Shown in pieces: positions 1 through 57,210 of a stretch of 64,000 bases of DNA. The position numbers and the translations under genes were made by a program. The notes beneath the pieces are model-generated. The model searched no databases and was not told the DNA's origin. It was given only the letters and a program-made list of their open reading frames with translations. How positions within the stretch are numbered: position 1 is the first letter of the stretch; each line of letters starts with the position of its first letter. The stretch comes from Gammaproteobacteria bacterium (GTDB lineage Bacteria; Pseudomonadota; Gammaproteobacteria; UBA4575): positions 495,852 through 559,851 of the forward strand of contig CBDCTA010000029.1 in NCBI GenBank assembly GCA_965221955.1, given 5' to 3'.

Positions 1-73
1 CGCTTCCTCGATATTTTTTTGCCTCGTCTGAGTCGTAAATTTAGTAATATGTCACTAATAAATCAGAGCTTTC
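1..73 (+). repeat. Intergenic repeat family, copy A (3' part, truncated by window edge), upstream of panB
   Basis: Aligns with the 3' half of the 100-140 bp repeat (tcgatatttttttgcctcgtct...aaatcagagctttc). It ends about 13 bp before the panB ATG. Confidence 0.6.
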
Positions 74-86
74 TAATTTAAATAAG

Positions 87-884
87 ATGAGCATTCATAA
101 ACCACATAAAAATATAACGCTTAGTCGTTTGCAAGAGATGAAGGCGAATAATGAAAAGATTGCTTGCTTGACGGCTTACGATGCAAGTTTTGCAGCTATT
201 CTTGATCAAGTTGGAATGGATGTCATCCTTGTGGGAGATTCACTCGGCATGGTTGTGCAGGGACAAGACAGTACTGTATCTGTGACGATGGAAGATATGA
301 TTTATCACAGCCAATGTGTAAGTGCTGCTGTAAAGCAGGCCTTTGTGATTGCGGATATGCCGTTTATGTCTTATACCAATGTTGAACAAGCGTTAGCGAA
401 TGCCACGGATTTAATTCAGTTAGGTGGTGCGCAAATGGTGAAGCTTGAAGCTTCTAGTAGACAGGTAAGTATTGTGCAAGAGCTAAGCGAATGCGGAATT
501 CCTATTTGTGCGCATTTGGGTTTGCGCCCACAATACATTCATAAGCTTGGTGGCTATGCCATGCAAGGCAAAGATGAAGCCAGTGCTAAAGAACTAACTC
601 AAAGTGCACAAAGTCTGCAAGCAGCAGGTGCTGATATGTTGTTACTGGAATGTGTGCCGGATGCGTTAGCGAAAAAGATTACACAAAAATCAGCTATACC
701 TGTGATAGGGATAGGTGCAGGTAAAGAATGTGACGGACAAATTCTTGTATTGCATGATGTTATTGGAATTACCCATGGCGTAACACCAAAGTTTGCAAAA
801 AACTTTCTTGTTGAGGCTGATGATATTCCATCTGCTATTGGTCAATACGTTAAAGATGTGAAAAATCTTACCTTCCCATCTTAA
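87..884 (+). CDS. panB: 3-methyl-2-oxobutanoate hydroxymethyltransferase
   Basis: 265 aa ORF with a PanB-like sequence throughout (TAYDASFA, VGDSLGMV motifs). It is followed by panC. Confidence 0.9.
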   Translation: MSIHKPHKNITLSRLQEMKANNEKIACLTAYDASFAAILDQVGMDVILVGDSLGMVVQGQDSTVSVTMEDMIYHSQCVSAAVKQAFVIADMPFMSYTNVEQALANATDLIQLGGAQMVKLEASSRQVSIVQELSECGIPICAHLGLRPQYIHKLGGYAMQGKDEASAKELTQSAQSLQAAGADMLLLECVPDALAKKITQKSAIPVIGIGAGKECDGQILVLHDVIGITHGVTPKFAKNFLVEADDIPSAIGQYVKDVKNLTFPS

Positions 885-885
885 A

Positions 886-1007
886 GAAGCTCTGATTGAA
901 CTTAATACTTCGTTAAAAAAATAATCTCAAATTCGCTCATGTATATATCAATACACTTCGCTCTTTTCGATATTTTTTGCCTCGTCTTAAAGTAAATCAA
1001 AACTTCC
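886..1007 (+). repeat. Intergenic repeat family, copy B, between panB and panC
   Basis: Full-length copy: gaagctctgattgaacttaata-cttcgttaaaaaaataatctcaaattcgctcatgtatatatcaatacacttcgctcttttcgatattttttgcctcgtcttaaagtaaatcaaaacttcc. Confidence 0.7.
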
Positions 1008-1017
1008 TACACTCCGC

Positions 1018-1869
1018 ATGTTTACGGTAAATACTGTTGCAGAACTACGCAAGAAAATAAGCGCTTGGAAATCTCAAGGTAAAAAAATCGTATTCGTTCC
1101 CACGATGGGAAACTTACATATTGGGCATATGGCATTGGTTAAACATGCGCATCGCTGTGGAGATAAAGTTGTTTGTAGTATTTTCGTCAACGCACTGCAG
1201 TTTGATCGCAATGAAGATTTAAATGCTTACCCACGCACGCCAGATCAAGATCTTGCTGCATTAGAAAATGAAAATGTAGACTTAGTTTTTATGCCTACGC
1301 ATGAAGAAGTATATGCAGAAGAAAACAAGCCGAAAAAAGTAATTCCAAAGCATCCGCTCAACCAAGAGCTATGTGGCGAATATCGTCCAGGTTTTTTTGA
1401 TGGCATCGTTGAAGTGGTTGCAAGATTATTTAATATGGTTACACCTGATGTGGCGGTGTTTGGTGAGAAGGATTATCAACAGTTAATCATTATTAAATTA
1501 TTAGTTGCGAATTTAGGCTTGCCTATAAAAATTGAATCCGTTGCAACTCAAAGAGAAGAAGATGGATTGGCATATAGCTCACGGAATTCATATTTGAGTG
1601 CAGAAGAAAGAGCAAAAGCTAAGCATTTGCATGCAGCATTAATGAGTGTAAAGACTCAAATTAAATCCGGTTTTAAAAACTTTGAGGCATTGGAAGATCA
1701 AGCGATGGGACAGCTTTCTTTGGCCGGATTTCGGCCTGATTATGTAGCTATTCGGGATGCTGAAGATCTTGCTAATCCTGCATATGCTACTGATTCTATT
1801 GTAATTTTAGCAGCTGCGTGGCTAGGGAAAGCGCGCTTGATCGACAACCTACTGTTACAAATGCGCTAA
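1018..1869 (+). CDS. panC: Pantoate--beta-alanine ligase
   Basis: 283 aa with the PanC HIGH-type motif (PTMGNLHIGH). It immediately follows panB. Confidence 0.9.
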   Translation: MFTVNTVAELRKKISAWKSQGKKIVFVPTMGNLHIGHMALVKHAHRCGDKVVCSIFVNALQFDRNEDLNAYPRTPDQDLAALENENVDLVFMPTHEEVYAEENKPKKVIPKHPLNQELCGEYRPGFFDGIVEVVARLFNMVTPDVAVFGEKDYQQLIIIKLLVANLGLPIKIESVATQREEDGLAYSSRNSYLSAEERAKAKHLHAALMSVKTQIKSGFKNFEALEDQAMGQLSLAGFRPDYVAIRDAEDLANPAYATDSIVILAAAWLGKARLIDNLLLQMR

Positions 1870-1923
1870 ATCAGTATACTTTACTTATACAGATTCTATG
1901 CGATTTTAAATTAGGAGTTAATT

Positions 1924-2022
1924 ATGTGGATGTTGGTTGTTTTATGTGTTGTATTAACAGTAGCAATAAACCTTGCAGCACAATTGAATTTATTCAGTCA
2001 TCTTAAGAATGGTACTTATTAA
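1924..2022 (+). CDS. Putative small hydrophobic peptide (32 aa, MWMLVVLCVVLTVAINLAAQLNLFSHLKNGTY)
   Basis: ATG preceded by a strong SD (ttAGGAGttaattATG, 5 nt spacing). A single predicted TM helix. A terminator follows directly. The ORF is too short for the ORF track. Confidence 0.35.
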   Translation: MWMLVVLCVVLTVAINLAAQLNLFSHLKNGTY

Positions 2023-2058
2023 TAGTTGCTAATTCTTTTAAGGAAATTGAGAATTCTA

Positions 2059-2087
2059 GGGGCGCATGTTGCGCCCTTATTTTTTTG
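2059..2087 (+). terminator. Rho-independent terminator after panC/small ORF
   Basis: Stem gggcgca-tgt-tgcgccc followed by ttatttttttg. Confidence 0.6.
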
Positions 2088-2090
2088 TCC

Positions 2091-2215
2091 TGAAGAAGCA
2101 TTGATTTGTTCTGGCTACTTCGTTAAAAATCATTTCTATTTCATTAATGTATAGATCAATACACATCACTCATTTCAATGATTTTTGTCTCGTCTCAAAA
2201 TAAATCAATGTTTCT
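2091..2215 (+). repeat. Intergenic repeat family, copy C, upstream of pgi
   Basis: gaagaagcattgatttgttctggcta-cttcgttaaaaatcatttctatttcattaatgtatagatcaatacacatcactcatttcaatgatttttgtctcgtctcaaaataaatcaatgtttcttt. It ends 8 bp before the pgi ATG. Confidence 0.7.
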
Positions 2216-2222
2216 TTGAGAT

Positions 2223-3785: not shown

Positions 3786-4859
3786 CTAGTTTAGTGTATG
3801 TTGTTGTAATGCCCATGCAACATGTTCTCTGACTAATTCGCTTGCATGGTTTCGTTTTTCTTGTAATGCGCGAAGTATTTTCGGTGAGCTGGATGCATTG
3901 CCTAGTGCTACCGCAATATTCCTCAGCCAGCATTCGTAGCCAACTCGCCTTATGGCAGAGCCTTCAGTATTTTTTAGGAAATCCTCTTCGCTCCAATTAA
4001 ATAAATCAATTAACTGCGGTGCATCTAAATTATTACGCACAGCAAAATCTGCCAGCTCACTTTTTTGTTCAAAGCGATTCCAGGGGCAATATAGTTGGCA
4101 GTCATCACAGCCATAGATGCGGTTACCCATCGCTTTTCTAAATTCAACAGGAATGGAGGTTTTTAATTCAATCGTGTGGTAAGAAATGCAACGTCGTGCA
4201 TCAAGTTTATACGGTGCAATGATTGCCTGAGTTGGACAAACTTCTATGCAGGTTTGACAGGTTCCGCAATGATTTTCGACACGCGAATCTATAGGTAATG
4301 GTAAATCGGTATATAGCTCACCAAGAAAAAACCATGAACCACATTCTTTGTTAATTAAATTGGTGTGTTTGCCTATCCAACCGAGACCGGCTTTTTCTGC
4401 TAAGGCTTTCTCAAGCACGGGGGCGCTATCGGTAAATGCTCGATAACCAAATGGCCCTACTGTATTCGCTATTTTATCTGCAAGTTTTTGTAAGCGTTTG
4501 CGAATCACTTTGTGATAGTCGCGCCCTAATGCATAGCGAGAAATATAAGCTTGTTCATAATTAGCTAATACTTCTTCTTCGCTTACTGCGTCTGGAGTTT
4601 GATAGTTAATACGTGTGGAGATGATACGAATAGTTCCAGGCACGAGTTTTTCTGGACGTGTGCGCTTCGTACCATGCTCACCCATGTAATACATTTCTCC
4701 GTGATAACCTGCATCTAGCCAATTCATTAAATGCGTTTCATGATCATTTAATTCAGTATTGCTGATACCGATTTCATCAAAGCCTAATTCTTTTCCCCAG
4801 TCTTTTATATCTTGAGCAAGCTTTGAAAAATCTATAGTTGGGTTATTCATTGCTAACAT
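3786..4859 (-). CDS. queG: tRNA epoxyqueuosine(34) reductase
   Basis: 357 aa with 4Fe-4S ferredoxin-type Cys motifs (CGTCQTCIEVCP, CDDCQLYCP) and a QueG-like C-terminus. It is divergent from nnr, as queG(yjeS)/nnr(yjeF) are in E. coli. Confidence 0.85.
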   Translation of the reverse strand: MLAMNNPTIDFSKLAQDIKDWGKELGFDEIGISNTELNDHETHLMNWLDAGYHGEMYYMGEHGTKRTRPEKLVPGTIRIISTRINYQTPDAVSEEEVLANYEQAYISRYALGRDYHKVIRKRLQKLADKIANTVGPFGYRAFTDSAPVLEKALAEKAGLGWIGKHTNLINKECGSWFFLGELYTDLPLPIDSRVENHCGTCQTCIEVCPTQAIIAPYKLDARRCISYHTIELKTSIPVEFRKAMGNRIYGCDDCQLYCPWNRFEQKSELADFAVRNNLDAPQLIDLFNWSEEDFLKNTEGSAIRRVGYECWLRNIAVALGNASSSPKILRALQEKRNHASELVREHVAWALQQHTLN

Positions 4860-4867
4860 ATAATAAA

Positions 4868-5010
4868 GGAAACTTTGATTTATACTGTCATGTTAATTTT
4901 TATGGTCGTTAAATTGATTACTTAAAATGCTCATGTATAGTTAATACACTCCGCTTTCTCGTAATCAATTTGCCTCATCTCAATCATTTCATTAGTAAAT
5001 CAAAGCTTCC
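4868..5010 (+). repeat. Intergenic repeat family, copy D (variant subfamily with tatggtcgttaaa start), upstream of nnr
   Basis: aggaaactttgatttatactgtc...tatggtcgttaaattgattacttaaaatgctcatgtatagttaatacactccgctttctcgtaatcaatttgcctcatctcaatcatttcattagtaaatcaaagcttcc. It ends 8 bp before the nnr ATG. Confidence 0.65.
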
Positions 5011-5018
5011 TTTAAGTT

Positions 5019-6494
5019 ATGAGTGAATTAGCGAATCAAATTTACTTAGCACATCAAGTACGCGAGCTTGATCGTATTGCCATAGAAGAATTTAACATAC
5101 CCAGTTTTACTTTAATGCAACGTGCTGCAGAAGCAGCATTTAAAGAAATACAGCAATCATGGCCGAATGTTAGTCGTATTATCGTATTGGTGGGTACGGG
5201 CAACAATGGTGGAGATGGCTATGTGATTGCAAGTCTTGCTTTGACTGCAAATATTGCGACCCAAGTCATTCAGGTGGGTGATCATACGAAATTGCAAGGT
5301 GATGCGAAAAAAGCCCACGACTTATTTGTTGAGAAGGGTGGAAAATGTGAGGTTTTTGACGACCTTGCATATTCAGATTGTGATGTGATTGTAGATGCTT
5401 TATTGGGTACTGGTTTGACACGAATGGTTGAAGGCAATTATGCAAAAGCAATTGGTAGAGCCAATCAGCATTCAGCGCCAATATTAAGTGTTGATATTCC
5501 ATCAGGCCTTAATGCCGACAATGGTCTTGCAATGGGTATTGCAGCGGTTGCTCAGGTGACAGTGACCTTTGTAGGTATGAAGCTTGGTTTATTAACTGCA
5601 GCGGGGCGTGAGTATTCAGGTAAAATCATTTTTAATCATTTGGAAATTTCAGAAAAAGTTTATCAATCCATGCCAGCTACTTGTCAATCGATTCAATTAA
5701 GTGATTTTCAAACCTTGCTTGGTGCACGTAAAGCAGATGCGCATAAAGGTGATTTTGGTCATGTGTTGATTATTGGTGGCAATGCAGGCATGGCAGGTTC
5801 CGTGATGTTAAGTGCTGAAGCTGCGGCTAGAACGGGTGCAGGTTTGGTTTCTGTTGCTACCATTCCGCAACATGCAACAGCTGCATTGTCTTCATGTAGA
5901 GAAATCATGGTGCATGGAATAGAAGGAGTTTCACAATTAAATACCTTACTGCAACAATGTAGCGTCGTAGCAGTGGGCCCTGGGCTTGGGAAAGATGATT
6001 GGGCGAAAACTTTATTTGCTCGGGTGATGGAGTTTGAAATTCCCATGGTTGTGGATGCGGATGGGTTAAATCTTTTAGCTGGTGAGCCAATGCAAAAACC
6101 ATCGTGGGTGATTACACCGCATCCTGGTGAAGCAGCACGCTTGTTAGATTGCTCAACAAAACAAGTACAAGAAGATCGTTTGCAATCCGTGCAGGCATTA
6201 CAAAAAAAATTTGGTGGAGTAAGTGTATTGAAAGGAAGTGGAACTTTAGTAGCATCTGAAACCGATGTTTCAATTTGCACTGCAGGTAATCCGGGAATGG
6301 CAAGTGGTGGTATGGGGGATGTACTAACCGGAATTATTGCTGGTTTGTTAGCACAAGGCTTGAATATCTATGATGCTGCTCGTTTTGGTGTGCAGTTGCA
6401 TGCACAAAGTGCAGATCTTGCTGCGAAAGAGGGTATGCGTGGCATGATTGCCAGTGATTTATTTATACCACTGCGAAATTTAGTCAACGCTTAA
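5019..6494 (+). CDS. nnr: Bifunctional NAD(P)H-hydrate repair enzyme (epimerase/dehydratase, YjeF family)
   Basis: 491 aa. N-terminal YjeF_N (GTGNNGGDG) and C-terminal carbohydrate-kinase-like domain (GPGLG, GDVLTG). Confidence 0.85.
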   Translation: MSELANQIYLAHQVRELDRIAIEEFNIPSFTLMQRAAEAAFKEIQQSWPNVSRIIVLVGTGNNGGDGYVIASLALTANIATQVIQVGDHTKLQGDAKKAHDLFVEKGGKCEVFDDLAYSDCDVIVDALLGTGLTRMVEGNYAKAIGRANQHSAPILSVDIPSGLNADNGLAMGIAAVAQVTVTFVGMKLGLLTAAGREYSGKIIFNHLEISEKVYQSMPATCQSIQLSDFQTLLGARKADAHKGDFGHVLIIGGNAGMAGSVMLSAEAAARTGAGLVSVATIPQHATAALSSCREIMVHGIEGVSQLNTLLQQCSVVAVGPGLGKDDWAKTLFARVMEFEIPMVVDADGLNLLAGEPMQKPSWVITPHPGEAARLLDCSTKQVQEDRLQSVQALQKKFGGVSVLKGSGTLVASETDVSICTAGNPGMASGGMGDVLTGIIAGLLAQGLNIYDAARFGVQLHAQSADLAAKEGMRGMIASDLFIPLRNLVNA

Positions 6495-7068: not shown

Positions 7069-8508
7069 GTGCAGCAGCATTTTCATACTGGTAATCCGTT
7101 AAAAATACAGGCATCAAGATTAGCTCAAATTCTAATCTATTCCATTTCTGTGTTAGTAGGTTCAGTGTTTTTCATGCTGAGCACTTCCAGTTTTGCTGCC
7201 AACAATATTGCTCAAATCAGTGATCTTCGAATTGCCGATCGCAAGACAGAAACACGAATAGTTTTCGATTTAAACGCACCTGTAAAGCACAGTATTTTTG
7301 TACTAAAAAATCCAGACCGTGTAGTGTTGGATATCGGGCAATGCGATGCGAATGGCAAGCTCAAAGTGGGTCGCGTGGGTGGCACACTGGTTAAAGATTT
7401 GCGTTATGCACAAAAGACGAATGAAAAATTACGCGTCGTATTTGATTTAAATTCACCGGTATCCCCAAAAAGCTTTTTGTTGCCACCACAAAGTGGCAAG
7501 GCCTATCGATTAGTCATCGATCTGACTGCGACAACTGCGCTTACAACGGCTCCAAGTGAAACAAAAAAGCCGCACGCTGAACCTGTAGTAGCTATGAAAG
7601 ATGCACCTGTAAGCCGTCGTGATGTCGTCATCGCAATTGATGCAGGTCATGGAGGTAAAGACCCGGGTGCAATTGGTCGTGGAGGCACGCGTGAAAAAGA
7701 TATTGTGCTTTCTATTTCTAAAAGACTTAAAAATCTAATTGATAAAGAACCTGGAATGAAAGCAGTGTTAATTCGAGATCGTGATACTTTTGTTCCGTTA
7801 AGAGGAAGAATTAAAAAAGCCAGCAAGTTAAATGCTGATATTTTTCTTTCTATTCATGCGGATGCTGCAGTAAATCGTCGTGCTAAGGGTTCTTCGGTAT
7901 ATGTGCTATCGCAACATGGTGCAACCAGTGAGGCCGCGCGTATCTTAGCGCAACGCGAAAATGCGTCAGATAAAATTGGTGGGGTTAGCCTAGAAGACAA
8001 AGATGATGTGTTGAAATCGGTATTGGTCGATTTATCACAAACCGCGACCATTGATGCCAGTATCGACTTAGCAGAAGACATTCTTAACGAGCTCGCTAAA
8101 GTTGGAAATATATTACGAGACGAAGTAGAACAAGCGGGTTTTGCAGTGTTGAAATCGCCCGACATTCCATCTGTTTTAGTTGAGACTGCATTTATTTCAA
8201 ACCCTGCAGAAGAAAAGCGTTTAAAAACAACAACGCATCAACAAAAACTTGCTACCGCAATTCTTAAGGGTTTACGTCGTTATGCAAAAGATCATGCTCC
8301 TGCAAATGCAATTTTGGCGAGTGCTCCGACTCCTACACCACTGACTAGATACACCATAAAACGTGGCGATACCTTGTCTGGCATTGCGGTACGTTACAAA
8401 GTCAGCATTAGAGATTTACGCAAAGCGAATGGATTGCGTTCAGATGTACTTAAAGTAGGGCAAGTATTAACCATTCCAACATCACCTATGGTTACTGCTG
8501 GCGCGTAA
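7069..8508 (+). CDS. amiB: N-acetylmuramoyl-L-alanine amidase (AMIN domain + Amidase_3 + C-terminal LysM)
   Basis: 479 aa with a signal/TM N-terminus and an amidase_3 core (AIDAGHGGKDPGA, SIHADA). The C-terminal LysM reads YTIKRGDTLSGIAVRY. The name amiB is assigned by synteny (nnr-tsaE-amiB-mutL); it could equally be called amiC. Confidence 0.85.
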   Translation: MQQHFHTGNPLKIQASRLAQILIYSISVLVGSVFFMLSTSSFAANNIAQISDLRIADRKTETRIVFDLNAPVKHSIFVLKNPDRVVLDIGQCDANGKLKVGRVGGTLVKDLRYAQKTNEKLRVVFDLNSPVSPKSFLLPPQSGKAYRLVIDLTATTALTTAPSETKKPHAEPVVAMKDAPVSRRDVVIAIDAGHGGKDPGAIGRGGTREKDIVLSISKRLKNLIDKEPGMKAVLIRDRDTFVPLRGRIKKASKLNADIFLSIHADAAVNRRAKGSSVYVLSQHGATSEAARILAQRENASDKIGGVSLEDKDDVLKSVLVDLSQTATIDASIDLAEDILNELAKVGNILRDEVEQAGFAVLKSPDIPSVLVETAFISNPAEEKRLKTTTHQQKLATAILKGLRRYAKDHAPANAILASAPTPTPLTRYTIKRGDTLSGIAVRYKVSIRDLRKANGLRSDVLKVGQVLTIPTSPMVTAGA

Positions 8509-8538
8509 TTTAAAAAGTTTGATTTGAAGGGAGAGCTG

Positions 8539-8561
8539 CGCACGGATGCGCAATTATATTG
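8539..8561 (+). terminator. Possible weak terminator after amiB
   Basis: gcgca-cgga-tgcgc hairpin followed by aattatatt. The stem is only 5 bp. Confidence 0.3.
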
Positions 8562-8719
8562 TGAGTCTAGGGGTATGCGAATATGATTCGCAGAGAGGGC
8601 GACCTACAGAGATGTTGGAAGTGCTAGAAAGCAGGATGCAGTTTCTAGTGAGACGCAACTGATTAAAGTCCAGTGATTTTAATTAAGCGCAGGTTGGGGA
8701 GCTCAAAGCATATTTTCAA

Positions 8720-8749
8720 AAAGTCAGCTTTCGGTCAATAGCAGACATT
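8720..8749. promoter_or_regulatory. 30-bp imperfect palindrome motif, copy 1 (aaagtcagc-tttcggtcaata-gcagacatt), 3' of the ECF sigma gene
   Basis: Shares arms (AATGTC/GACATT) and a central core with the copies at 9820 and 10779. In minus orientation it is followed by TTTTT, so it may act as the terminator of the sigma gene. Confidence 0.45.
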
Positions 8750-8763
8750 CAATGTATCACTTA

Positions 8764-9330
8764 CTAGCAACATTGATCCTTATTTAAGCTGTTTTTTTGC
8801 TTATACTCGATCACCTTTCCAAAACGATCCTTTTCAATTTCACAACAAGCTAGAAGTTCTTCTTTTAATTTAATGCGTCCTCGCTGTATACGTGACTTCA
8901 TTCCTGAAACCGAAATACCTATTCGCTCTGCGGCATCAGCTTGCTTAATTTCATTGAAGTCTGCTAATAGCAGAGCTTCCTTGTATTTCGGTTCCAGCTT
9001 GTTTGTAAGTGGTCTCAAACATTTGGCAAATTCACTATCTACGTTGTCAGGCATACTTTCATAATCAGCTATTGTAGTTTCAAGGTCATTAACATCATTT
9101 GATGCATTTATATTCGAGTGTTTTCGGTAATAGTCTGTAATTCTATTTTTGGCAACGATGTAAATCCATGCAAGTGGATTTTCAGCATCAGTTAACGCGC
9201 CCTCATTTTGTAGTACGCTTAAGAGAATGTCGTGTACTAAATCCTCAGATACATCGACATCCACTTTGGTACGAATATACTTGGTTAATAAGGATCGCAA
9301 CTCATCCCAAGTTGTATTTAATTCGGACAT
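8764..9330 (-). CDS. ECF (sigma-70 family, group 4) RNA polymerase sigma factor with a short Cys-pair C-terminal extension
   Basis: 188 aa. Region 2 reads DLVHDILLSV...WIYIVAKNRITDYYRK and the region 4 HTH reads ADFNEIKQADAAERIGISVSGMKSRIQRGR. The roughly 35 aa tail contains two CC pairs (LLACCEI...KDQCC). Confidence 0.8.
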   Translation of the reverse strand: MSELNTTWDELRSLLTKYIRTKVDVDVSEDLVHDILLSVLQNEGALTDAENPLAWIYIVAKNRITDYYRKHSNINASNDVNDLETTIADYESMPDNVDSEFAKCLRPLTNKLEPKYKEALLLADFNEIKQADAAERIGISVSGMKSRIQRGRIKLKEELLACCEIEKDRFGKVIEYKQKNSLNKDQCC

Positions 9331-9819: not shown

Positions 9820-9849
9820 AATGCCCGCTTTGGGTCGTTAGCGGACATT
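9820..9849. promoter_or_regulatory. 30-bp imperfect palindrome motif, copy 2 (aatgcccgc-tttgggtcgtta-gcggacatt), upstream of the VOC-sigma operon
   Basis: It lies 85 bp upstream of the VOC gene start on the minus strand. Loop/core tttgggtcgtta is identical to copy 3. Confidence 0.5.
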
Positions 9850-10778: not shown

Positions 10779-10808
10779 AATGTCTGCTTTGGGTCGTTAG
10801 CGGCCATT
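10779..10808. promoter_or_regulatory. 30-bp imperfect palindrome motif, copy 3 (aatgtctgc-tttgggtcgtta-gcggccatt), between sohB 3' end and the orphan ORF start
   Basis: Same core as copy 2. It overlaps the sohB stop region and lies about 70 bp upstream of the 10706 start. Confidence 0.5.
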
Positions 10809-13163: not shown

Positions 13164-14975
13164 ATGAATTCTATTCAACAGCTTCCTCCACAGTTAGTAA
13201 ATCAAATTGCAGCCGGTGAAGTGATCGAACGGCCTGCTTCAGTTTTAAAAGAGTTACTGGAAAATGCTTTGGATGCAGGTGCGACAAAAATTATTATTGA
13301 ATTGGAACAAGGGGGTATGCAATCTATTCGAGTAAGTGATAACGGTCTAGGTATCCCTAAAGATGAAATTCATATGGCGGTACAACGCCATGCGACCAGC
13401 AAAATTGCTTCCATGGATGATCTTGAGCACATCGCTACCTTGGGATTTCGAGGTGAAGCCTTACCAAGCATCGCATCGGTTTCAAAGTTTAGTTTAGCTT
13501 CTAATAATAGTGAAGAAGGCAATGCAGGTTGGGTAATCAGTTCAGACGGTAGAGAATTCAACGAAGAAGTTATGCCGGTGCGACAAACACGTGGCACGAC
13601 AGTTGAGGTAAAAGATTTATTTTTTAACGTGCCCGCGAGAAAAAAATTCTTACGCACTGAGAAAACTGAGCTTAAGCACTGTGACAATGTATTACGTAAA
13701 ATCGCATTAAGTCGCTTTGATGTAACCGTGATCGCGAAACACAATGGGCGCAATGTGTTTGAGGTAAGTGCATGCGACTTTTTTGAAAAGGGCTCGGATC
13801 GAGTAGGTCAAATCAGTGGTAAGCAATTTGCCGAGCAAAGCATTTACTTAGAAAACGCTGCTCAAGATATTCAAATACAAGGTTGGATTAGCTTACCTAC
13901 TTTTTCTCGTAGCCAAGCTGACTTGCAATATTTTTATGTAAACGGACGTGTGATTCGAGACAAAGTGATTTCGCATGCTATCAAACAAGCGTATCAAGAT
14001 GTGTTGTATCACGGTCGTTTCCCCGCGTTTGTATTGTTTTTAGAAATGGATCCGGTACAGGTAGATGTAAATGCGCACCCAACCAAGCACGAGGTTCGGT
14101 TTCGCCAAAGTCGTTATGTACACGACTTTATTCGACACACGGTGGGTAAAGCGATTGCAGAAACAATGCCCAAGCAAGAACAACAAGGGGCAGAACAATA
14201 CCGAGAAATTGTTGATGATTATATTCGTGCGGCACAAAGCCAAAGTGCAGTAAAAGATCATTCTTATTCACATGCGAGCTCAACCTCGCAGCATGTGCGT
14301 GAACCTGTGCATAGTTATGCTACGCAAACCGCTAATGAATATGATTTGTTGTTAAGAATGCCCCCTGAAGAAGCGCATACTACAGAAGAAGCGCCACCTC
14401 TAGGTTATGCCATTGAACAATTACACGGTATTTATATCTTGGCTCAAAACGCAAAGGGATTGGTGATTGTAGACATGCACGCAGCACATGAACGCATTGT
14501 GTATGAAAAGCTAAAAACTTCTTATCAACAAGGTGAGCTTGCTACACAACCATTACTGATGCCGTTAACCATCAATGTAAGTCCGCAAGAAGCAGTATTG
14601 GCCGAACAACATAGTGAAGCGTTTTTAAAATTTGGTTTTCATATAGAGCGTTTTGGTGAAGATAGTATTGTGGTGCGAGAAATTCCTTCTTTGCTGCAGC
14701 AAGCAGATGTCAATACATTGGTGCTAGATGTGCTAGCCGATTTAAATATGTTTGGTAGTTCAGAAAAATTAGAGCAAGCGAATAATGAATTATTGTCAAC
14801 GATGGCATGCTACGGTTCGGTACGTGCACACAGAAAACTTACGCTTGCAGAAATGAATGCCTTGTTACGTGAAATGGAAGCCACAGAAAGAAGTTCGCAA
14901 TGCAATCATGGAAGGCCAACTTGGGTGCAATTGAGTATTGATCAGCTCGATAAACTCTTCAAGCGCGGCCAATAG
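13164..14975 (+). CDS. mutL: DNA mismatch repair protein MutL
   Basis: 603 aa. N-terminal GHKL ATPase (NQIAAGEVIERPASVLKELLENALDAGAT) and a C-terminal dimerisation domain. Confidence 0.9.
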   Translation: MNSIQQLPPQLVNQIAAGEVIERPASVLKELLENALDAGATKIIIELEQGGMQSIRVSDNGLGIPKDEIHMAVQRHATSKIASMDDLEHIATLGFRGEALPSIASVSKFSLASNNSEEGNAGWVISSDGREFNEEVMPVRQTRGTTVEVKDLFFNVPARKKFLRTEKTELKHCDNVLRKIALSRFDVTVIAKHNGRNVFEVSACDFFEKGSDRVGQISGKQFAEQSIYLENAAQDIQIQGWISLPTFSRSQADLQYFYVNGRVIRDKVISHAIKQAYQDVLYHGRFPAFVLFLEMDPVQVDVNAHPTKHEVRFRQSRYVHDFIRHTVGKAIAETMPKQEQQGAEQYREIVDDYIRAAQSQSAVKDHSYSHASSTSQHVREPVHSYATQTANEYDLLLRMPPEEAHTTEEAPPLGYAIEQLHGIYILAQNAKGLVIVDMHAAHERIVYEKLKTSYQQGELATQPLLMPLTINVSPQEAVLAEQHSEAFLKFGFHIERFGEDSIVVREIPSLLQQADVNTLVLDVLADLNMFGSSEKLEQANNELLSTMACYGSVRAHRKLTLAEMNALLREMEATERSSQCNHGRPTWVQLSIDQLDKLFKRGQ

Positions 14976-15099
14976 AAGCCCCTGAATTTGTTTTCTGCTT
15001 CGTTAAAAAAATGATCTCAATAGTGCTCATGTATTAGCATATACACTTCGCTTATTTCGACATTTTTTTGCCTCACATAAAATCAAATCAGAGCCTTCT
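14976..15099 (+). repeat. Intergenic repeat family, copy E, between mutL and miaA
   Basis: aagcccctgaatttgttttctg-cttcgttaaaaaaatgatctcaatagtgctcatgtattagcatatacacttcgcttatttcgacatttttttgcctcacataaaatcaaatcagagccttc. It ends 10 bp before the miaA GTG. Confidence 0.7.
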
Positions 15100-15109
15100 A
15101 TAAATTGAA

Positions 15110-16418: not shown

Positions 16419-17705
16419 TTGTTTGAGCGTCCAGACATAGGTCAACGCGCTATACTTGTGCATGTAAAGTTTAATGGGGCAGCAAATAATCAAGACTTAG
16501 GTGAATTTAAAGATCTGGTACGATCGACTGGTGCAGAAATTGCCACAGTTGTAACCGTGCAACGTAGTACACCTGATGCAAAACTATTAATTGGCAGTGG
16601 CAAGGTTGAAGAGATTGGTGTGCTTGCTTATTCGCTTGAAGCCGATATTGTAATTTTTAATTATTCTTTATCTCCGAGTCAGGAGCGCAACTTAGAAAAG
16701 ATTTGTAAAAAACGTGTTCTGGATCGAACTGGTTTAATCTTAGACATTTTTGCGCAACGCGCGCGCTCCTACGAAGGTAAGTTACAAGTAGAGCTTGCGC
16801 AATTAAAGTATTTATCCACACGCTTGGTGCGTGGTTGGAGTCATTTGGAGCGTCAGAAAGGTGGTATTGGTTTACGCGGTCCGGGTGAGAAACAATTAGA
16901 ATCTGATAGACGCTTGTTACGTGCACGAATTAAACAAATTTCTAAGCGTTTAGATAAATTACGCCAACAGCGAGATCAAGGCAGAGCAGCACGCAGAAAA
17001 ACGACTACACCTACGGTTGCATTAGTGGGTTATACCAACGCAGGTAAGTCGACCTTATTTAATCGTTTAACGGATGCTACGGTATATTCTGCAGATAAGT
17101 TATTTGCAACGTTAGACCCAACGCTACGGCGTATGCAGATTTCTAAGGGTCAGCATATTGTGTTGGCGGATACAGTTGGGTTCATTCAAGATTTGCCGCA
17201 CGATCTAATCGAAGCATTTCATGCCACATTACAAGAAACGCAAGAGGCAGATCTACTTTTACACATTGTTGATGCGAGTGATCCAAACCGCGACAACAAT
17301 ATTGAACAGGTTCAGCTTGTTCTGGAGCAAATCGATGCTTTGGAAGTTCCGCAGATCATGGTGTTTAACAAAATAGATCAAATTGACATGTTGCCGAATG
17401 TTGATCTAGATGCACATGGGAGAATTCAACATGTTTGGATGTCTGCTCAGAGTGGAGAAGGTAAAGAGCTTTTGGTTCAAGCGCTGAAACAGTATTTTGA
17501 ACAACAAGTTGAGCGTATGTGGCTGCATTTACCTCCGGCCAAAGGTGGGTTGCGTAGTGAGCTATATAAGCATAGTGAAGTGTTGCAAGAGTCTGTTGAT
17601 GATCAAGGATTCTGGTTGATCGAGGCTGAAATTCCTTTGAATATACTCAAAAAGTTTGCGGAATATAAAATTCCTGAAGAATCTGTACAGCAGGCAAGCT
17701 TATAA
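16419..17705 (+). CDS. hflX: GTPase HflX
   Basis: 428 aa. G-domain motifs GYTNAGKST and DTVGF. It sits in the hfq-hflX-hflK-hflC order. Confidence 0.9.
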   Translation: MFERPDIGQRAILVHVKFNGAANNQDLGEFKDLVRSTGAEIATVVTVQRSTPDAKLLIGSGKVEEIGVLAYSLEADIVIFNYSLSPSQERNLEKICKKRVLDRTGLILDIFAQRARSYEGKLQVELAQLKYLSTRLVRGWSHLERQKGGIGLRGPGEKQLESDRRLLRARIKQISKRLDKLRQQRDQGRAARRKTTTPTVALVGYTNAGKSTLFNRLTDATVYSADKLFATLDPTLRRMQISKGQHIVLADTVGFIQDLPHDLIEAFHATLQETQEADLLLHIVDASDPNRDNNIEQVQLVLEQIDALEVPQIMVFNKIDQIDMLPNVDLDAHGRIQHVWMSAQSGEGKELLVQALKQYFEQQVERMWLHLPPAKGGLRSELYKHSEVLQESVDDQGFWLIEAEIPLNILKKFAEYKIPEESVQQASL

Positions 17706-32393: not shown

Positions 32394-34058
32394 ATGGAAA
32401 AAGTTTGGTTAAAAAGCTATCCAGAAGGTGTTCCTGAATTTGCAGAGTTGGGTAAGTATAAATCGTTGGCACATATGTTTGACGAATGTGCAGAGCGGCA
32501 TAGTCATCTGCCAGCATTCTCCAACATGGGTGCGTCGATTAGTTTTTCTGAACTTAATATCGAGAGCTACAATTTTGCAGCTTATCTACAAACTGAACTA
32601 GGTTGTAAAAAAGGTGATCGTGTCGCGATCATGCTACCTAATTTATTGCAATTCCCTGTCGCTTTGTATGGTGTGTTACGTTCGGGTTGTGTTGCGGTTG
32701 ACGTTAACCCACTTTATACCTCGCGCGAACTTGGTCACTACTTAAAAGACTCTGGTGCAAAAGTAATTGTAATATTGGAAAACTTTGCAGATGTACTTGC
32801 TGAAATTATTCATGACACAGATGTTGAGCATGTAATTCTCACAAGAGTGGGCGATATGCTTGGTTTTCCAAAGTCGTTGCTGGTTAATTTTGTCCTTAAA
32901 TATGTACAGAAAAAAATTCCTAAATACTCTATTGATAAAATTATTCCTTTCAATGAAGTCCTCGCAGTTGGGCAACAAAGGCAACTTGTAAAGCCAGAGC
33001 TGACTCAAGATGATTTAGCTTTTTTGCAATTTACTGGTGGAACAACAGGTTTAGCCAAGGGTGCAATGTTGTCGCACGGCAATTTGCTTGCCAATGTGGC
33101 GCAAGCCGGAGCTTTTTTTGGCCCAATTTTAGAAGAAGGTAAAGAAATCGTAATTACGGCCTTACCGCTGTACCACATATTTTCTTTAACTGCGAATTGT
33201 TTCTTGTTCACCAAAATTGGTGGGTTAAATTATTTAATTACTAACCCACGCGATATGAAAGGCTTTGTAAAAGAGTTAGGCAAAGTGAAGTTTTCAGTGA
33301 TCACTGGTGTAAATACTTTATTTAATGGTTTATTAAATACAGATGGCTTTTCCGATTTGGATTTCTCTCACCTTAAAGTTACTCTGGGTGGTGGTATGGC
33401 AGTGCAAGAATCTGTAGCAACAGAATGGCACGAAACCACGGGTTGTGTGTTAGCTGAGGCTTATGGTTTAACCGAAGCTTCTCCTGCGGTAACAATGAAT
33501 CCTTATGATCTAAAAGAATATAACGGCACGATAGGTTTACCCATTCCGAATACGGAAATCTCAATTCAAGATGATGAAGGGAATCATCTTGGAATAGAAG
33601 AAGCTGGAGAGCTATGTGTACGCGGGCCGCAAGTGATGCAAGGTTATTGGAACCGTCCTGAAGAAACTAAAAATACAATCGATGAAGAGGGTTGGTTGAA
33701 AACCGGTGATATTGCAATGGTGTCAGAGGATGGCTTTGTGCGTATTGTCGATCGTAAAAAAGATATGATTCTTGTTTCAGGTTTTAATGTCTATCCAAAT
33801 GAAATTGAAAATGTAGTGCAGTCTCATGCTGGAGTATTAGAAGTGGCAGCCGTTGGTGTGGGTGATGAAGAGTCTGGCGAGGTAGTAAAGCTTTTCATTG
33901 TTAAGAAAGACCCTGCGTTGACTAAAGAAGATGTGTTAGAGCATTGCAAAGACCGGCTAACGCGTTATAAATGGCCTAAACATATTGAGTTTAGAGATGA
34001 GCTGCCTAAGACCAATGTTGGCAAAATCTTGCGTCGCGCACTTAGGGATGAGGAATAG
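32394..34058 (+). CDS. fadD: Long-chain-fatty-acid--CoA ligase (AMP-binding family)
   Basis: 554 aa with the AMP-binding motif TGGTTGLAKG and the FadD-like C-terminal KWPK...LP.T.VGKILRR. Confidence 0.8.
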   Translation: MEKVWLKSYPEGVPEFAELGKYKSLAHMFDECAERHSHLPAFSNMGASISFSELNIESYNFAAYLQTELGCKKGDRVAIMLPNLLQFPVALYGVLRSGCVAVDVNPLYTSRELGHYLKDSGAKVIVILENFADVLAEIIHDTDVEHVILTRVGDMLGFPKSLLVNFVLKYVQKKIPKYSIDKIIPFNEVLAVGQQRQLVKPELTQDDLAFLQFTGGTTGLAKGAMLSHGNLLANVAQAGAFFGPILEEGKEIVITALPLYHIFSLTANCFLFTKIGGLNYLITNPRDMKGFVKELGKVKFSVITGVNTLFNGLLNTDGFSDLDFSHLKVTLGGGMAVQESVATEWHETTGCVLAEAYGLTEASPAVTMNPYDLKEYNGTIGLPIPNTEISIQDDEGNHLGIEEAGELCVRGPQVMQGYWNRPEETKNTIDEEGWLKTGDIAMVSEDGFVRIVDRKKDMILVSGFNVYPNEIENVVQSHAGVLEVAAVGVGDEESGEVVKLFIVKKDPALTKEDVLEHCKDRLTRYKWPKHIEFRDELPKTNVGKILRRALRDEE

Positions 34059-35982: not shown

Positions 35983-36269
35983 TGGGTGCTCCTAGCGTAA
36001 AGATTAGATACAAATACCTATCTTAAGGGGGCTTTCTAAAGGGGCTCTACAAACTTGAGATCGCCCGTTGTAAAGCAACGATAGAAGGATATTTGCCTAA
36101 TCTAAACCACTGACTTTTTAGTGATAATCCAATATTTTTAGTTAATATCGATTCAAATTGCTAGTAATAAAAATGTGATCTGGTTCGCAATTCGCTTTTG
36201 TGTGTACAATAGCCATAATATTTAGCACGAGTAGTGCTGAACGACTAAGCCACAATAAGTAAAATAAAG

Positions 36270-46617: not shown

Positions 46618-46694
46618 TGGCGCCCCGAGTAGGAGTCGAACCTACGACCTCTCCCTTAGGAGGGGAGCGCTCTATCCAGCTGAGCTATCGGGGC
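46618..46694 (-). tRNA. tRNA-Arg (anticodon CCT)
   Basis: 77 nt cloverleaf read by hand: GCCCCGA acceptor, anticodon loop CTCCTAA, T-arm GTAGGTTCGACTCCTAC, encoded CCA. Confidence 0.85.
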
Positions 46695-46924: not shown

Positions 46925-47011
46925 TGGTGCCGAGGGAGAGAATCGAACTCTCACTATGTTTCCATAACCGGATTTTGAATCCGGCGCGTCTACCAGTTCC
47001 GCCACCCCGGC
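46925..47011 (-). tRNA. tRNA-Leu (anticodon CAA)
   Basis: 87 nt class II tRNA: GCCGGGG acceptor, anticodon loop TTCAAAA, long variable arm, GTTCGATTC T-loop, encoded CCA. Confidence 0.85.
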
Positions 47012-51540: not shown

Positions 51541-51556
51541 GTGAATTAAGAAATCT

Positions 51557-52495: not shown

Positions 52496-52497
52496 CA

Positions 52498-52626
52498 AAG
52501 AAGTCCTGATTTAAATTGATACTTCGTTAAAAATTATTCTCAATATCGTTCGTGTATGTATTAATACACGTCACTCATTTCGAAAATTTTTGTCTCGTCT
52601 CAAACTAAATCAAAACTTCTTTAGGT
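52498..52626 (+). repeat. Intergenic repeat family, copy F, between secF and suhB 3' ends
   Basis: aagaagtcctgatttaaattgata-cttcgttaaaaattattctcaatatcgttcgtgtatgtattaatacacgtcactcatttcgaaaatttttgtctcgtctcaaactaaatcaaaacttcttt. It contains a perfect 7-bp inverted repeat, cgtgtat/atacacg. Confidence 0.7.
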
Positions 52627-53481: not shown

Positions 53482-53617
53482 GGAAGTACTGTATGCCGGT
53501 TTTGCACGACTGCATGGATGCAGGAGATAGAACGAAGCAGGATGCTAGAGTCGAGGAGCAAAAACCGGCGTTTTAAAAAAAGTATCTCTTCTAGCTAATT
53601 AGTAGCTACCCATAGTC

Positions 53618-54364: not shown

Positions 54365-54451
54365 TTTCCATATTTTTATAAAGGTTATCAATCCTGGTTT
54401 TTAAGCTCCCTACCCATGGGGATAGTGAAGCGAACAAACCGCCTATCTATA

Positions 54452-54476
54452 ATACCTGAGTAACTTACTGGGTTAT
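54452..54476 (+). promoter_or_regulatory. Putative type-1 IscR binding site upstream of iscR
   Basis: atacctgagtaacttactgggttat resembles the ATASYYGACTRwwwYAGTCRRSTAT type-1 IscR box. A second, related sequence lies at about 54481-54510. Confidence 0.4.
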
Positions 54477-54529
54477 TTGTTATACTTACAGTCTCGTAAC
54501 TGAGCGGATTTTGATAAAGGCGGTACTGT

Positions 54530-55000
54530 ATGAAACTGAGCACAAAAGGGCGTTATGCTGTGACAGCGATGTTTGATATTGCATTGCACAATCAAACGGG
54601 TCCGGTTTCCTTGTCAGATATAGCTGATCGACAAGGTATTTCATTGTCGTATTTAGAGCAATTGTTTACACGTTTACGACAGCAAGGACTGGTGAAAAGT
54701 ACACGAGGACCTGGTGGCGGCTATTCACTTGCCATCGATTCTGAACAAATTGCGATTTCAGATGTAATTGATGCCGTTGATGAAAACGTCGATGCGACAC
54801 GTTGCGGTGGTAAAGCCGATTGTCAAAACCATCAACGTTGTTTAACTCATGATTTATGGGAAAACTTGAGTGGTGAAATCAGAAGCTATCTCTCAAACAT
54901 TAGTCTAGCTCAAGCAGTGAGCGATTTAAGTGTTCGTAAAGTAGCGAGTCGTCAGGATCTGAGTAATAACCAACAAGTTCATCCTGTTGAGTTTAGTTAA
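54530..55000 (+). CDS. iscR: Fe-S cluster assembly transcriptional regulator IscR
   Basis: 156 aa. [19 protein letters not shown]... is the Rrf2 HTH. Cluster Cys residues are at about 92/98/104. Confidence 0.9.
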
Positions 55001-55039
55001 GGCGAGTTTAGTTAAAAAATTTATTGAAGGTAAAGCAAA

Positions 55040-56264
55040 GTGACAGATGTAAAACTACCCATCTATTTAGATTACAGTGCGACTACGCCAGTTGATGAGC
55101 GAGTGGCACAAGCGATGATGGATTGTTTAACCAAAGAAGGTAACTTCGGTAACCCCGCATCACGCAGTCATAGCTTTGGTTGGGATGCAGACAAGGCCGT
55201 TGAAGAAGCGCGAGCTAATGTTGCGGCACTCATTAATGCTAATCCTAAAGAAATTATTTGGACCAGTGGTGCAACAGAGTCTGATAATTTAGCCATTAAA
55301 GGTGCGGCGCATTTTTATCAAAAAAATGGTAAGCATTTAATCACCTGCAAAACCGAACATAAGGCAGTTTTAGATACTTGTCGTCAGCTTGAGCGAGAAG
55401 GATTTGAGGTTACCTATTTAGAGCCGCGTAATAATGGTTTGATTGATTTAGAAGATTTAAAAGCTGCAATTCGTGATGACACCATTTTGATTTCGATTAT
55501 GCATGTGAATAATGAAATCGGAGTGATTCAGGATATTAAAGGCATTGGTGAAATCACACGCGAACGCAAAATTATTTTTCATGTGGATGCGGCGCAAAGT
55601 CCCTGGGAAAGTACCAGTTGATGTGGAAGAAATGAATGTAGATTTAATGAGCCTATCTGCACATAAAGTATATGGCCCTAAAGGTATTGGAGCTTTATAT
55701 GTTCGCAGAAAACCACGTGTACGTATTGAAGCGCAGATTCATGGTGGTGGCCATGAGCGTGGTATGCGTTCTGGTACGTTGGCTACACATCAAATTGTAG
55801 GCATGGGCGAAGCATTTCGGATCGCTAAAGAAGAAATGGCTGCAGATAACGAACGAATTTTAATGTTGCGCAATCGTTTATTAAATGGCCTTAAAGATAT
55901 GGAAGAAATCTATATTAATGGTGACCTTGAACAGCGTATTCCGGGTAACCTAAATGTTAGTTTTAACTTCGTCGAAGGTGAAAGTTTAATTATGGCGCTG
56001 AAAGATATTGCAGTGTCTTCCGGGTCTGCATGTACAAGTGCATCACTTGAGCCAAGTTATGTATTGCGCGCATTAGGACGAGATGACGAACTTGCACATA
56101 GCTCAATTCGCTTCACTATTGGTCGTTTTACAACGGTCGAAGAAGTGGATTATGCGATTGAGTTAATTAGAAAAGCGGTGATTAAATTGCGCGATCTTTC
56201 ACCTCTGTGGGATATGTATAAAGAAGGGATCGATCTTAAATCGATCGAGTGGGCCGCGCATTAA
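55040..56264 (+). pseudogene. iscS: Cysteine desulfurase IscS, split by an apparent +1 frameshift near 55601-55604
   Basis: Two overlapping ORFs (55040-55621 and 55545-56264) in different frames together span full-length IscS. The join falls at ...FHVDAAQS|(P)[21 protein letters not shown]. The frame changes in the CCC run of agtccctggg. Confidence 0.8.
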
Positions 56265-56319
56265 TTATTTTGATTTTTGATTAGGAATAATAAGTAGGAA
56301 ATATTAGGAGACGATAACC

Positions 56320-56739
56320 ATGGCATATAGTGACAAAGTACTAGATCACTACGAAAATCCACGCAACGTAGGATCTTTTGAAAAAGATGATCCCAATGTG
56401 GGCACCGGTATGGTAGGTGCACCTGCATGTGGTGATGTGATGAAATTACAAATTAAAGTAGGTAATGACGGCATAATTGAAGACGCTAAATTTAAAACCT
56501 ACGGTTGTGGCTCTGCGATTGCTTCATCTAGCTTACTTACCGAATGGGTAAAAGGTAAAACGCTAGAACAAGCGAGTGAAATTAAAAATACCGATATCGC
56601 TGAAGAACTAGCACTTCCACCAGTTAAAATTCATTGTTCAGTTTTAGCAGAAGATGCAATCAAAGCTGCTATTACTGATCTTAAATCTAAAGCTGATGGC
56701 TCAGCAGAAGATAATCAACAACAGAAGAAAATTGCTTAA
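56320..56739 (+). CDS. iscU: Fe-S cluster scaffold IscU
   Basis: 139 aa. MAYSDKVLDHYENPRNVGSF...GAPACGDVMKLQIKV is canonical IscU. Confidence 0.95.
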   Translation: MAYSDKVLDHYENPRNVGSFEKDDPNVGTGMVGAPACGDVMKLQIKVGNDGIIEDAKFKTYGCGSAIASSSLLTEWVKGKTLEQASEIKNTDIAEELALPPVKIHCSVLAEDAIKAAITDLKSKADGSAEDNQQQKKIA

Positions 56740-56748
56740 TCATTAGTT

Positions 56749-57072
56749 ATGTCTATCTCGCTAACTGAAAGTGCAGCTACACACGTAAAAAGTTATCTTG
56801 AAAAAAGAGGTAAAGGTGTTGGTGTGCGGTTAGGAGTGAAAACCACGGGCTGTTCTGGTATGGCATACACCATAGAATTTGCAGACCAAATTGAAGATGA
56901 AGATCAAGTTTTTGAAGACAAAGGCGTTAAGGTTATCGTTGACCCTAAAAGCATGGTCTATCTTGGCGGCACAGAACTCGATTTTACTCGTGAAGGATTG
57001 AATGAGGGCTTTAAGTTTACAAATCCAAACGAGAAAGAGAGATGCGGGTGTGGAGAAAGCTTCAGTGTGTGA
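56749..57072 (+). CDS. iscA: Fe-S cluster insertion protein IscA
   Basis: 107 aa with C-terminal CGCGESF. Confidence 0.9.
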
Positions 57073-57210
57073 GGAAACTTTGAATTATTCTGCCTTAGTT
57101 TAATTGTTATGGTCGTTAAAAAATAATCACAAATCGTTCATGTATATTTAATACACATCACTCATTTCGATATTTTTTGCCTCGTCTCAACCGCTTCACT
57201 AATAAATCAA
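57072..57210 (+). repeat. Intergenic repeat family, copy G (variant subfamily, like copy D), between iscA and hscB
   Basis: aggaaactttgaattattctgcc...tatggtcgttaaaaaataatcacaaatcgttcatgtatatttaatacacatcactcatttcgatattttttgcctcgtctcaaccgcttcactaataaatcaaagttccttc. Confidence 0.7.

Follow-up and report, generated by a model that had tools for sequence, protein, structure and literature searches.

Which sequence repeatedly separates the tightly packed housekeeping genes of an uncultured gammaproteobacterium, and how did it come to lie there? The question arises from a 64,000-nucleotide stretch (the window) of a Gammaproteobacteria bacterium assembly (GTDB lineage UBA4575; GenBank GCA_965221955.1, contig CBDCTA010000029.1, positions 495,852 to 559,851 of the forward strand). 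There, a first-pass annotation had described seven co-oriented copies of an intergenic repeat and had offered as options a shared promoter or 5′-leader module, an ERIC- or RUP-like structured RNA, and a decayed mobile element. The repeat is indeed undescribed, with neither a prior name nor an Rfam match; its core sequence string is absent from the literature searched, where the accessions of related genomes likewise go without mention. We observed it as a hairpin insertion bearing terminal inverted repeats (TIRs) and flanked by TA, present or absent at orthologous sites, with remnants, nesting and inversion. Very probably, the repeat is a classical bacterial MITE (miniature inverted-repeat transposable element), a hairpin-shaped family of the ERIC/Correia/RUP type. 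Among the options offered, the ERIC/RUP-like element and the mobile element pointed the right way, and the promoter or leader module found no support.

An nhmmer profile was built on six of the copies listed earlier and searched against the window, and a covariance model was used for bit scores. Six profile matches were obtained, all on the plus strand (886-1007, 2095-2214, 4868-5010, 14977-15097, 52500-52619 and 57073-57214; E 1e-22 to 1e-29), and nhmmer placed all seven listed copies within a few bases of their original coordinates. The family was also recovered independently by a de novo repeat search of the window. With up to 2 mismatches, a core 15-mer occurs 8 times against 1.4 expected, a count attained by none of 100 shuffles; two of the eight occurrences (33362 and 36092) are non-copies. 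The weak matches at 33331-33379, within a coding open reading frame (ORF), and at 36092-36106 were rejected as copies. Two additional copies, at 60049-60178 and from 63931 to the window end, bring the total to nine, and the latter is on the minus strand, so that the reported co-orientation of all copies in the window does not hold. Of 28 intergenic gaps measuring 100 bp or more, 7 hold a full copy, amounting to about 13% of intergenic bases. The neighbouring genes originally named (panB, panC, pgi, queG/nnr, mutL/miaA, secF and iscA/hscB) were verified by Pfam, and the convergent gene beyond copy F is an inositol-monophosphatase (suhB-like) gene. The nine copies and one orphan end are:

1..75, plus strand: copy A, in the dNK→panB spacer; only the 3′ part (long 3′-module variant), the 5′ part lying beyond the window edge (nhmmer 8-72, E 7.5e-4).
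882..1010, plus strand: copy B, in the panB→panC spacer, beginning at the TA of the panB stop codon (covariance model 122.7 bits, E 1e-22).
2091..2218, plus strand: copy C, between the intrinsic terminator of a small conserved ORF and the pgi start codon (covariance model 111.3 bits).
4865..5013, plus strand: copy D, in the divergent queG/nnr spacer, preceded by a conserved TATAAT box and followed by the nnr start; a member of the long subfamily, with modules on the 5′ and 3′ sides, TIR of 26 nt at 85% complementarity (91.8 bits).
14972..15101, plus strand: copy E, in the mutL→miaA spacer, abutting the mutL stop codon, with TA/TA flanks (109.5 bits).
52496..52623, plus strand: copy F, between the convergent secF and suhB-like genes (covariance model 127.7 bits).
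57070..57220, plus strand: copy G, in the iscA→hscB spacer, beginning inside the iscA stop codon; long subfamily (96.8 bits).
57240..57258, plus strand: an orphan second 3′ end, ATAAGTTAGAAACTTCTTT, downstream of copy G and matching the 3′-TIR consensus.
60049..60178, plus strand: a divergent, decayed copy in the fdx→iscX spacer, overlapping the fdx stop codon (covariance model 42.3 bits, E 2e-6), with the compensated central-stem variant CATTTAC/GTAAAC and its hairpin kept (z −4.5).
63931..64000, minus strand: a copy downstream of rodZ that runs past the window end; long variant with an internal module (nhmmer match and alignment).

The ends of the element are TIRs of 17-26 nt (AAGGAAGCYCTGATTTAT / ATAAATCAGRGCTTCCTT); as measured by a repeat search, the arms span 19-26 nt at 81-89% complementarity and extend to 37 nt at 73%. 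The majority consensus of 124 nt (AAGGAAGCTCTGATTTATTCTGATACTTCGTTAAAAAATAATCTCAAATTGCTCATGTATAATTTATACACTTCGCTCTTTTCGATATTTTTTGCCTCGTCTCAAAATAAATCAGAACTTCCTT) is non-coding and too short to encode a transposase. Copies measure 120-151 bp, variants with extra or nested internal modules spanning 130 to ~205 bp, and are A+T-rich (GC 0.28-0.35 versus ~0.40 for the window). The consensus folds into a single continuous imperfect hairpin (−33 kcal/mol, z −7.9) and its complement folds at −49 kcal/mol (z −11.3); in individual copies, the termini close one long hairpin (z −1.6 to −5.5). A central inverted repeat noted at first reading was upheld as a GTATA/TATAC stem, as was the subfamily formed by D and G, which is defined by indel modules: one of 13-15 nt on the 5′ side, found in D and G, and one of 10-12 nt on the 3′ side, shared by D, G, the rodZ copy and many copies elsewhere. 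The statement that the repeat has no TIRs and so is no classical MITE is refuted by the TIRs themselves, the TA-flanked ends, the full-length hairpin and the presence or absence of the element at orthologous sites. Small non-coding size, TIRs, an A+T-rich long stem-loop and filled and empty sites are among the criteria of Delihas 2008 (PMC2229807) for bacterial MITEs, and each of these four was found here; 5′-TA-3′ termini with target-site duplication and a cognate autonomous insertion sequence are further ones, taken up below.

Syntenic contigs of relatives (labelled L0xx) were reached through PanC and HscB homologues with 66-84% protein identity. Among ten related genomes or contigs, seven syntenic spacers are polymorphic, being filled in some and empty in others:

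dNK-panB (copy A): empty, 17-36 bp, in L028, L029, L049 and L052; filled in the window; only a 17-nt solo 3′ TIR remains in L030.
panB-panC (copy B): empty, 6-26 bp, in L029, L049, L051, L052 and L054; filled, 129-215 bp, also in L028 and L030.
panC-pgi (copy C): without the element, 236-263 bp, in L028, L030, L051, L052 and L054; filled, 351-437 bp, in the window, L029 and L049; L015 is also filled (L029 and L015 copies 85% identical to C).
queG/nnr (copy D): empty, 20-58 bp, in L029, L030, L051, L052 and L054; filled, 155-159 bp, with L049 sharing an identical junction around an inverted interior.
secF/suhB (copy F): empty, 0 bp, in L055 and L057, both of which have a TA precisely where copy F is inserted (AAC-TA-TTTTT); filled, 125 bp.
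fdx-iscX (divergent copy): empty, 27 bp, in L057; filled, 166-168 bp, with occupied sites in L056 (90% identical) and L055 (78%).
rodZ-hisS (minus-strand copy): empty, 24 bp, in L057; filled, with a minus-strand copy also in L055; reduced to a ~50-bp collapsed remnant in L056.

The pattern of presence across genomes varies by site and therefore indicates several gains and losses. The copy E site is also occupied in L011 (68% identical), and the copies sharing the site of G are 83% identical to it in L057 and decayed in L055 and L056 (45-52%). Identities drawn from L055 need some caution: it is a low-coverage (3x) ENA contig in which tgt, a suhB-like gene and iscS (1141-2135, 5377-6277 and 7807-8954) are each broken into short gene calls, probably by assembly frameshift errors rather than as real pseudogenes. 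Another contig, L054 (ENA ERZ25069191, 2.1 Mb; PanC 66% identical), has the same gene order with a GC content of 0.51 versus 0.39-0.40 in the others, a strong change in composition for a single syntenic clade. Strings resembling the 3′ end of the element were also seen in the short ‘empty’ panB-panC spacers of L052 (9975-10000, ACATTTCATT..TAAAT..TTCC) and L051 (9986-10000, TAAGCTTCTTT). These may be footprints of lost copies, which would make the family older, and could also be chance matches.

The insertions follow a recurrent pattern. Most well-preserved termini are bordered by TA or its single-transition variants TG or CA. The typical insertion point is at, or just past, the upstream stop codon, very often in the TA of TAA or TAG. 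The first base of the element (A or G) completes a TAA, TAG or TGA stop codon. The insertion disturbs neither the short spacer that was there before nor the following start codon, which stand intact 5-13 nt past the 3′ end of the element. The short gap to the next start codon that had first been noticed was measured at 8-58 bp; in a compact genome, it is simply what an insertion at the upstream stop codon produces. This proximity (most window copies end 5-13 nt, and up to 58 nt, ahead of a start codon) is also the main attraction of a shared internal promoter or 5′-leader module acting on the downstream gene, along with the position of copy D directly downstream of a conserved TATAAT box and weak 9/12 promoter-like matches in two copies. 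However, no conserved sigma-70 site was found inside the element: the weak matches, present in 2 of 4 copies, lie at different positions, and the regional count of sigma-70-like sites is 8, below the shuffle mean of 17.1. Nor was a conserved intrinsic terminator found inside it, the sole strong one (2057-2086) lying upstream of copy C and outside the element. Moreover, copy F and several copies elsewhere sit between convergent genes or are anti-oriented to both neighbours, both orientations occur, and relatives express the same operons with element-free spacers of 6-26 bp. Such a module is thus very improbable.

Turnover of the family is visible as solo-TIR and collapsed remnants, nested 50-70-bp modules, an inverted interior at one junction and an orphan TIR. 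A central module of ~50 bp is present in L020a, L032 and L035. A nested palindromic module of ~70 bp (TTGACAAAT...ATTTGTCAA-type ends) was found in L028 (~5882-5949), L049 (~5707-5790), L055 (~16680-16760) and the rodZ copy (window 63985-64000 onward); it occupies the same internal position in several copies across different sites and genomes, and represents either a long subfamily that is transposed whole or another, smaller MITE lodged inside this one. Between its TIRs, the interior of the element may also be turned around. Copy D (4865-5013) and the copy at L049 9222-9357 have identical queG/nnr junctions with the interior reverse-complemented, and both carry the compensated stem AAATTRATTA/TAATCAATTT, found in no other copy; an in-situ inversion between the TIRs would be the simplest reading of this difference. 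At the iscA-hscB spacer, the downstream flank of the orphan 3′ end (57240-57258) aligns with the 3′ junction of the L057 copy. The orphan is probably the leftover of an older resident copy, and the alignment suggests that the spacer was re-invaded.

A long palindrome of this kind might also have been moved as single-stranded DNA by an HUH (Y1) transposase, as an IS200/IS605-derived palindrome or a giant REP/RAYT-type unit that is recognised by structure and inserted with a replication-strand bias. The arms covary, so that structure seems to outweigh sequence at the outer positions, and eight of the nine window copies lie on the plus strand, as do 48 of 62 ORFs, in a window whose GC skew is positive throughout. 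Yet copies are mixed in orientation relative to local GC skew (~15 to 6 across all independent sites, ~7 to 5 when the window is set aside). Outside the window, ~7 sites are co-oriented with genes and 5 anti-oriented, and the copies in L004b, L005/L019, L013 and L032 run against both neighbouring genes. Tandem-gene sites hold ~9 co-oriented versus 4-5 anti-oriented copies, and at one orthologous site (queG/nnr) the element is found either way round. The family as such is therefore not co-oriented with genes. The symmetric TIRs with TA on both sides are also at odds with an HUH mechanism, given that IS200/IS605 elements have neither TIRs nor target-site duplications and that REPs are 20-40 bp long and G+C-rich (Delihas 2011, PMC3184786). 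We consider this route highly unlikely.

In the MITE reading that we favour, the element would owe its movement to an IS630/Tc1-mariner-type DDE transposase that duplicates TA and acts in trans, by analogy with RUP/IS630-Spn1, Correia and ERIC (PMC2229807). During the divergence of an uncultured gammaproteobacterial clade, the element was gained, lost and partly deleted, and by all appearances re-invaded one spacer and was once inverted in situ. Operon-internal copies, at sites where the 6-26-bp spacers of relatives leave no room for signals, would be co-transcribed and would fold back in the mRNA so that their flanks stay adjacent, and insertion between tightly packed housekeeping genes would for that reason be tolerated.

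Comparison with known systems places the element close to three families. Like ERIC/IRU/RU-1 (127 bp), it is an imperfect palindrome of nearly equal size with TIRs and, at most termini, TA (5′-TA-3′ in ERIC), is intergenic within transcription units, occurs in both orientations and has longer variants with internal insertions (PMC2229807, PMC3184786). Unlike ERIC, it resides in uncultured gammaproteobacteria with a GC content of ~40% and has contiguous TIRs of 17-26 nt, versus 7 bp in ERIC; a further ERIC feature, shown for Yersinia, is an orientation-dependent effect involving RNase E. ERIC itself was rejected, as a blastn search (word 11) with the 124-nt consensus matched none of 5,426 complete E. 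coli genomes. ERIC copies, too, are reportedly (Wilson and Sharp 2006) unusually conserved between species. With the Correia/NEMIS elements of Neisseria (~107 and 155 bp), the family shares long TIRs (24-26 bp in Correia), TA at the termini (with target duplication in Correia), short and long forms differing by an internal module of ~50 bp, insertion beside genes, co-transcription (predicted for the present family) and a definition by filled/empty comparison (PMC2229807). Sequence and host differ, which by description sets it apart from Correia, and neither an IHF-site consensus nor an outward promoter as in Correia was recognised in the element by promoter scan and inspection. RUP of Streptococcus pneumoniae (107 bp) is likewise a TA-target MITE of similar size with TIRs, and is thought to be mobilised by IS630-Spn1, providing a model for in-trans mobilisation by an IS630-family transposase (PMC2229807). 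In contrast to the present family, which is found in housekeeping operon spacers, RUP prefers insertion sequences as targets, and it has a known cognate insertion sequence with matching TIRs, whereas none was found here in ~0.5 Mb. The element thus works like ERIC, Correia and RUP yet belongs to none of them by sequence or host. Two other classes were ruled out: integron attC/VCR sites (R″/R′ core sites RYYYAAC...GTTRRRY), by the termini AAGGAAGC...GCTTCCTT, the syntenic housekeeping neighbours and the presence of both orientations; and REP/BIME or IS200/IS605-derived palindromes, by a 124-bp A+T-rich single hairpin, TIRs, two-sided TA and mixed orientation. Readings of the conserved boxes as IHF sites, LexA boxes or attC were rejected by inspection against the consensus motifs.

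Whether the hairpin matters as RNA or as DNA was examined in an alignment of 24 copies. The 31-pair hairpin is paired in 90% of cells and the terminal helix in 88%, and 21 pairs are changed on both sides, in 60 cells. The covariation score is 0.263 versus 0.114 in shuffles (none of 500 attains it) and 0.05-0.09 in slid controls. Counted on the transcribed strand of each copy, 22 mismatches are G.U-type and 26 A.C-type, showing no RNA-type wobble asymmetry (p = 0.67); in the orientation of the element, 18 mismatches are of the G.U type and 36 of the A.C type. Among the three fdx-iscX copies, no in-situ compensated change was detected (0 of 37 pairs), and their hairpins are kept (z −2.5 to −4.6). 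In the absence of an RNA signature in the mismatches, the matching between arms is explained equally well or better at the DNA level, where TIR matching in a transposing lineage and template-switch correction of quasi-palindromes, an established process, are the candidates. An RNA role for the hairpin is possible. The consensus fits no known Rfam family, and even with permissive filters two loci with near-consensus copies yielded nothing at E≤1. At the gathering threshold the only Rfam matches of the window are two tRNA genes, on the minus strand at 46621-46694 and 46928-47011, in a 680-bp gap.

The conservation of copies at shared sites raises a different possibility, namely that the repeat is mainly a host-selected cis-regulatory module of housekeeping operons, acting as an RNA hairpin or as the DNA site of a protein, with its MITE-like spread being ancient. 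At four-fold degenerate sites, the window genome and its relatives are 35-44% identical versus 28% by chance, which is essentially saturated. Copies at shared sites are nevertheless 84-91% identical for C, L029 and L015, 78-90% for the fdx-iscX trio, 87% for the L005/L019 and L004a/L020a copies and 69-82% for B, L028 and L030. In the panC-pgi region, the element is 85% identical, compared with 86-89% for the 3′ end of panC, 70-71% for the 5′ end of pgi and 48-57% for the neighbouring non-functional spacer. Some shared-site copies, at 78-91%, stand out against both four-fold sites and non-functional spacers, and unpaired columns are nearly as conserved as paired ones. The decay of the L055 and L056 copies at the G site makes this conservation site-specific, which speaks against gene conversion across the family. 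Nor is there clustering of copies by genome, copy B being nearest to a copy of another species (88%), which argues against concerted evolution within genomes. Against a mainly host-selected module stand the lack of wobble asymmetry on the transcribed strand, the fdx-iscX trio without in-situ compensatory change, the occurrence of both orientations even at one orthologous site, and the failure to match any Rfam family or any promoter or terminator consensus. In addition, many sites are empty in close relatives, so that no copy is indispensable, and re-invasion, of which the orphan TIR at the G site is a sign, could have put younger copies in place of some that look orthologous. We regard such a module as possible rather than probable, and it overlaps with the last step of our preferred explanation.

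In that last step of the MITE account, some copies would later have been kept by host-level purifying selection, most likely as cis-acting hairpins for mRNA processing or stability, as with ERIC and Correia. A host-level function for a subset of copies is put forward tentatively. Our reading of the identities is that some individual copies may be under purifying selection in situ, and we also hold as a conjecture, with doubt outweighing confidence, that a subset has been domesticated. The candidates are the fdx-iscX, panC-pgi and iscA-hscB copies, ~125 nt of MITE-derived sequence kept at 78-91% across saturated species while sister copies decay.

Several observations weigh against the classification as a MITE. 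The register of the target duplication carries an ambiguity of 2 nt, since TA is its own complement and the outermost pair occurs both as T-A and as A-T, and old junctions are mutated. Conservation is lowest at the outermost TIR positions, and the interior equals the inner TIR in this respect, a pattern not predicted by transposase recognition alone. No autonomous parent or transposase with matching ends was found by TIR-only matching in the ~0.5 Mb examined, which returned only the solo remnant and the ninth copy. Finally, coding-level conservation at shared sites needs more than a selfish element.

The family is narrowly distributed. When one genome per species was scanned for the exact pattern, true copies turned up only in five uncultured Gammaproteobacteria/‘Thiotrichales’ metagenome-assembled genomes (MAGs), with 1-3 matches each, the other 16 hits being chance matches; a metagenome scan added few further contigs with the element. 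No copy was found within 20 kb of syntenic DNA in relatives with a PanC identity of ≤75%. The window holds five exact pattern matches in its 64 kb, and a 7-kb part of it contains four copies, against zero to two in relatives, which points to a recent expansion of the family in this lineage. The hundreds of copies per genome first suggested would be an extrapolation from the window, and relatives carry far fewer in the corresponding regions. The single match in viral contigs was shown by the covariance model to be chance, and plasmids and phages yielded neither a match to the element nor an annotated relative.

Further features were noted beside the copies. Between panC and pgi, a 34-codon ORF (1924-2028, plus strand; MWMLVVLCVVLTVAINLAAQLNLFSHLKNGTY) is conserved in every relative examined, with a 42-residue gene call at its position in two of them. 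It is followed by a strong intrinsic terminator (2057-2086, plus strand; GGGGCGC...GCGCCC and a T-run), copy C lying between this terminator and the pgi start. In all genomes with an empty queG/nnr site (L029, ~9822-9836; L030, L051, L052 and L054), a TATAAT-like hexamer (TATACT in L052) stands exactly 6 nt ahead of the nnr ATG, which suggests that the nnr mRNA is leaderless or nearly so in these genomes; in the window (box at 4857-4864) and in L049 the element lies between box and ATG, and nnr would gain a hairpin leader of ~150 nt. A second, unrelated 30-nt repeat with a palindromic stem (AATGYCYGC-N12-GCGGMCATT) occurs at 8720-8749, 9820-9849 and 10779-10808. Spaced at ~1 kb, its three copies lie a short way downstream of minus-strand genes; a convincing fold is seen for the middle one alone (−13.5 kcal/mol, z −4.1), and the repeat may be a REP-like or terminator hairpin family.

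New bacterial MITE families turn up regularly. The one described here is an annotation key for spacers of 120-200 bp that would otherwise be puzzling in the conserved operons of a clade of uncultured gammaproteobacteria, its lineage-specific insertions are markers helping to resolve relationships among MAGs, and its palindromes may break assemblies. Between housekeeping genes, a few copies have hardly changed over a very long period. Some match their flanking genes in conservation and others at neighbouring sites are decayed, which is the pattern expected if the host occasionally recruits single MITE insertions; such recruitment has been argued for ERIC and Correia elements and is rarely datable. 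If the domestication of a subset is true, the clade would offer a natural, datable series of MITE exaptation into operon-internal cis-elements, and should transcripts bear out an effect, natural controls would be at hand in the filled, empty and inverted alleles. Taken together, deep site-specific conservation, in-situ inversion and the presence of filled, empty and inverted alleles in housekeeping operons make this family a useful handle on MITE exaptation.

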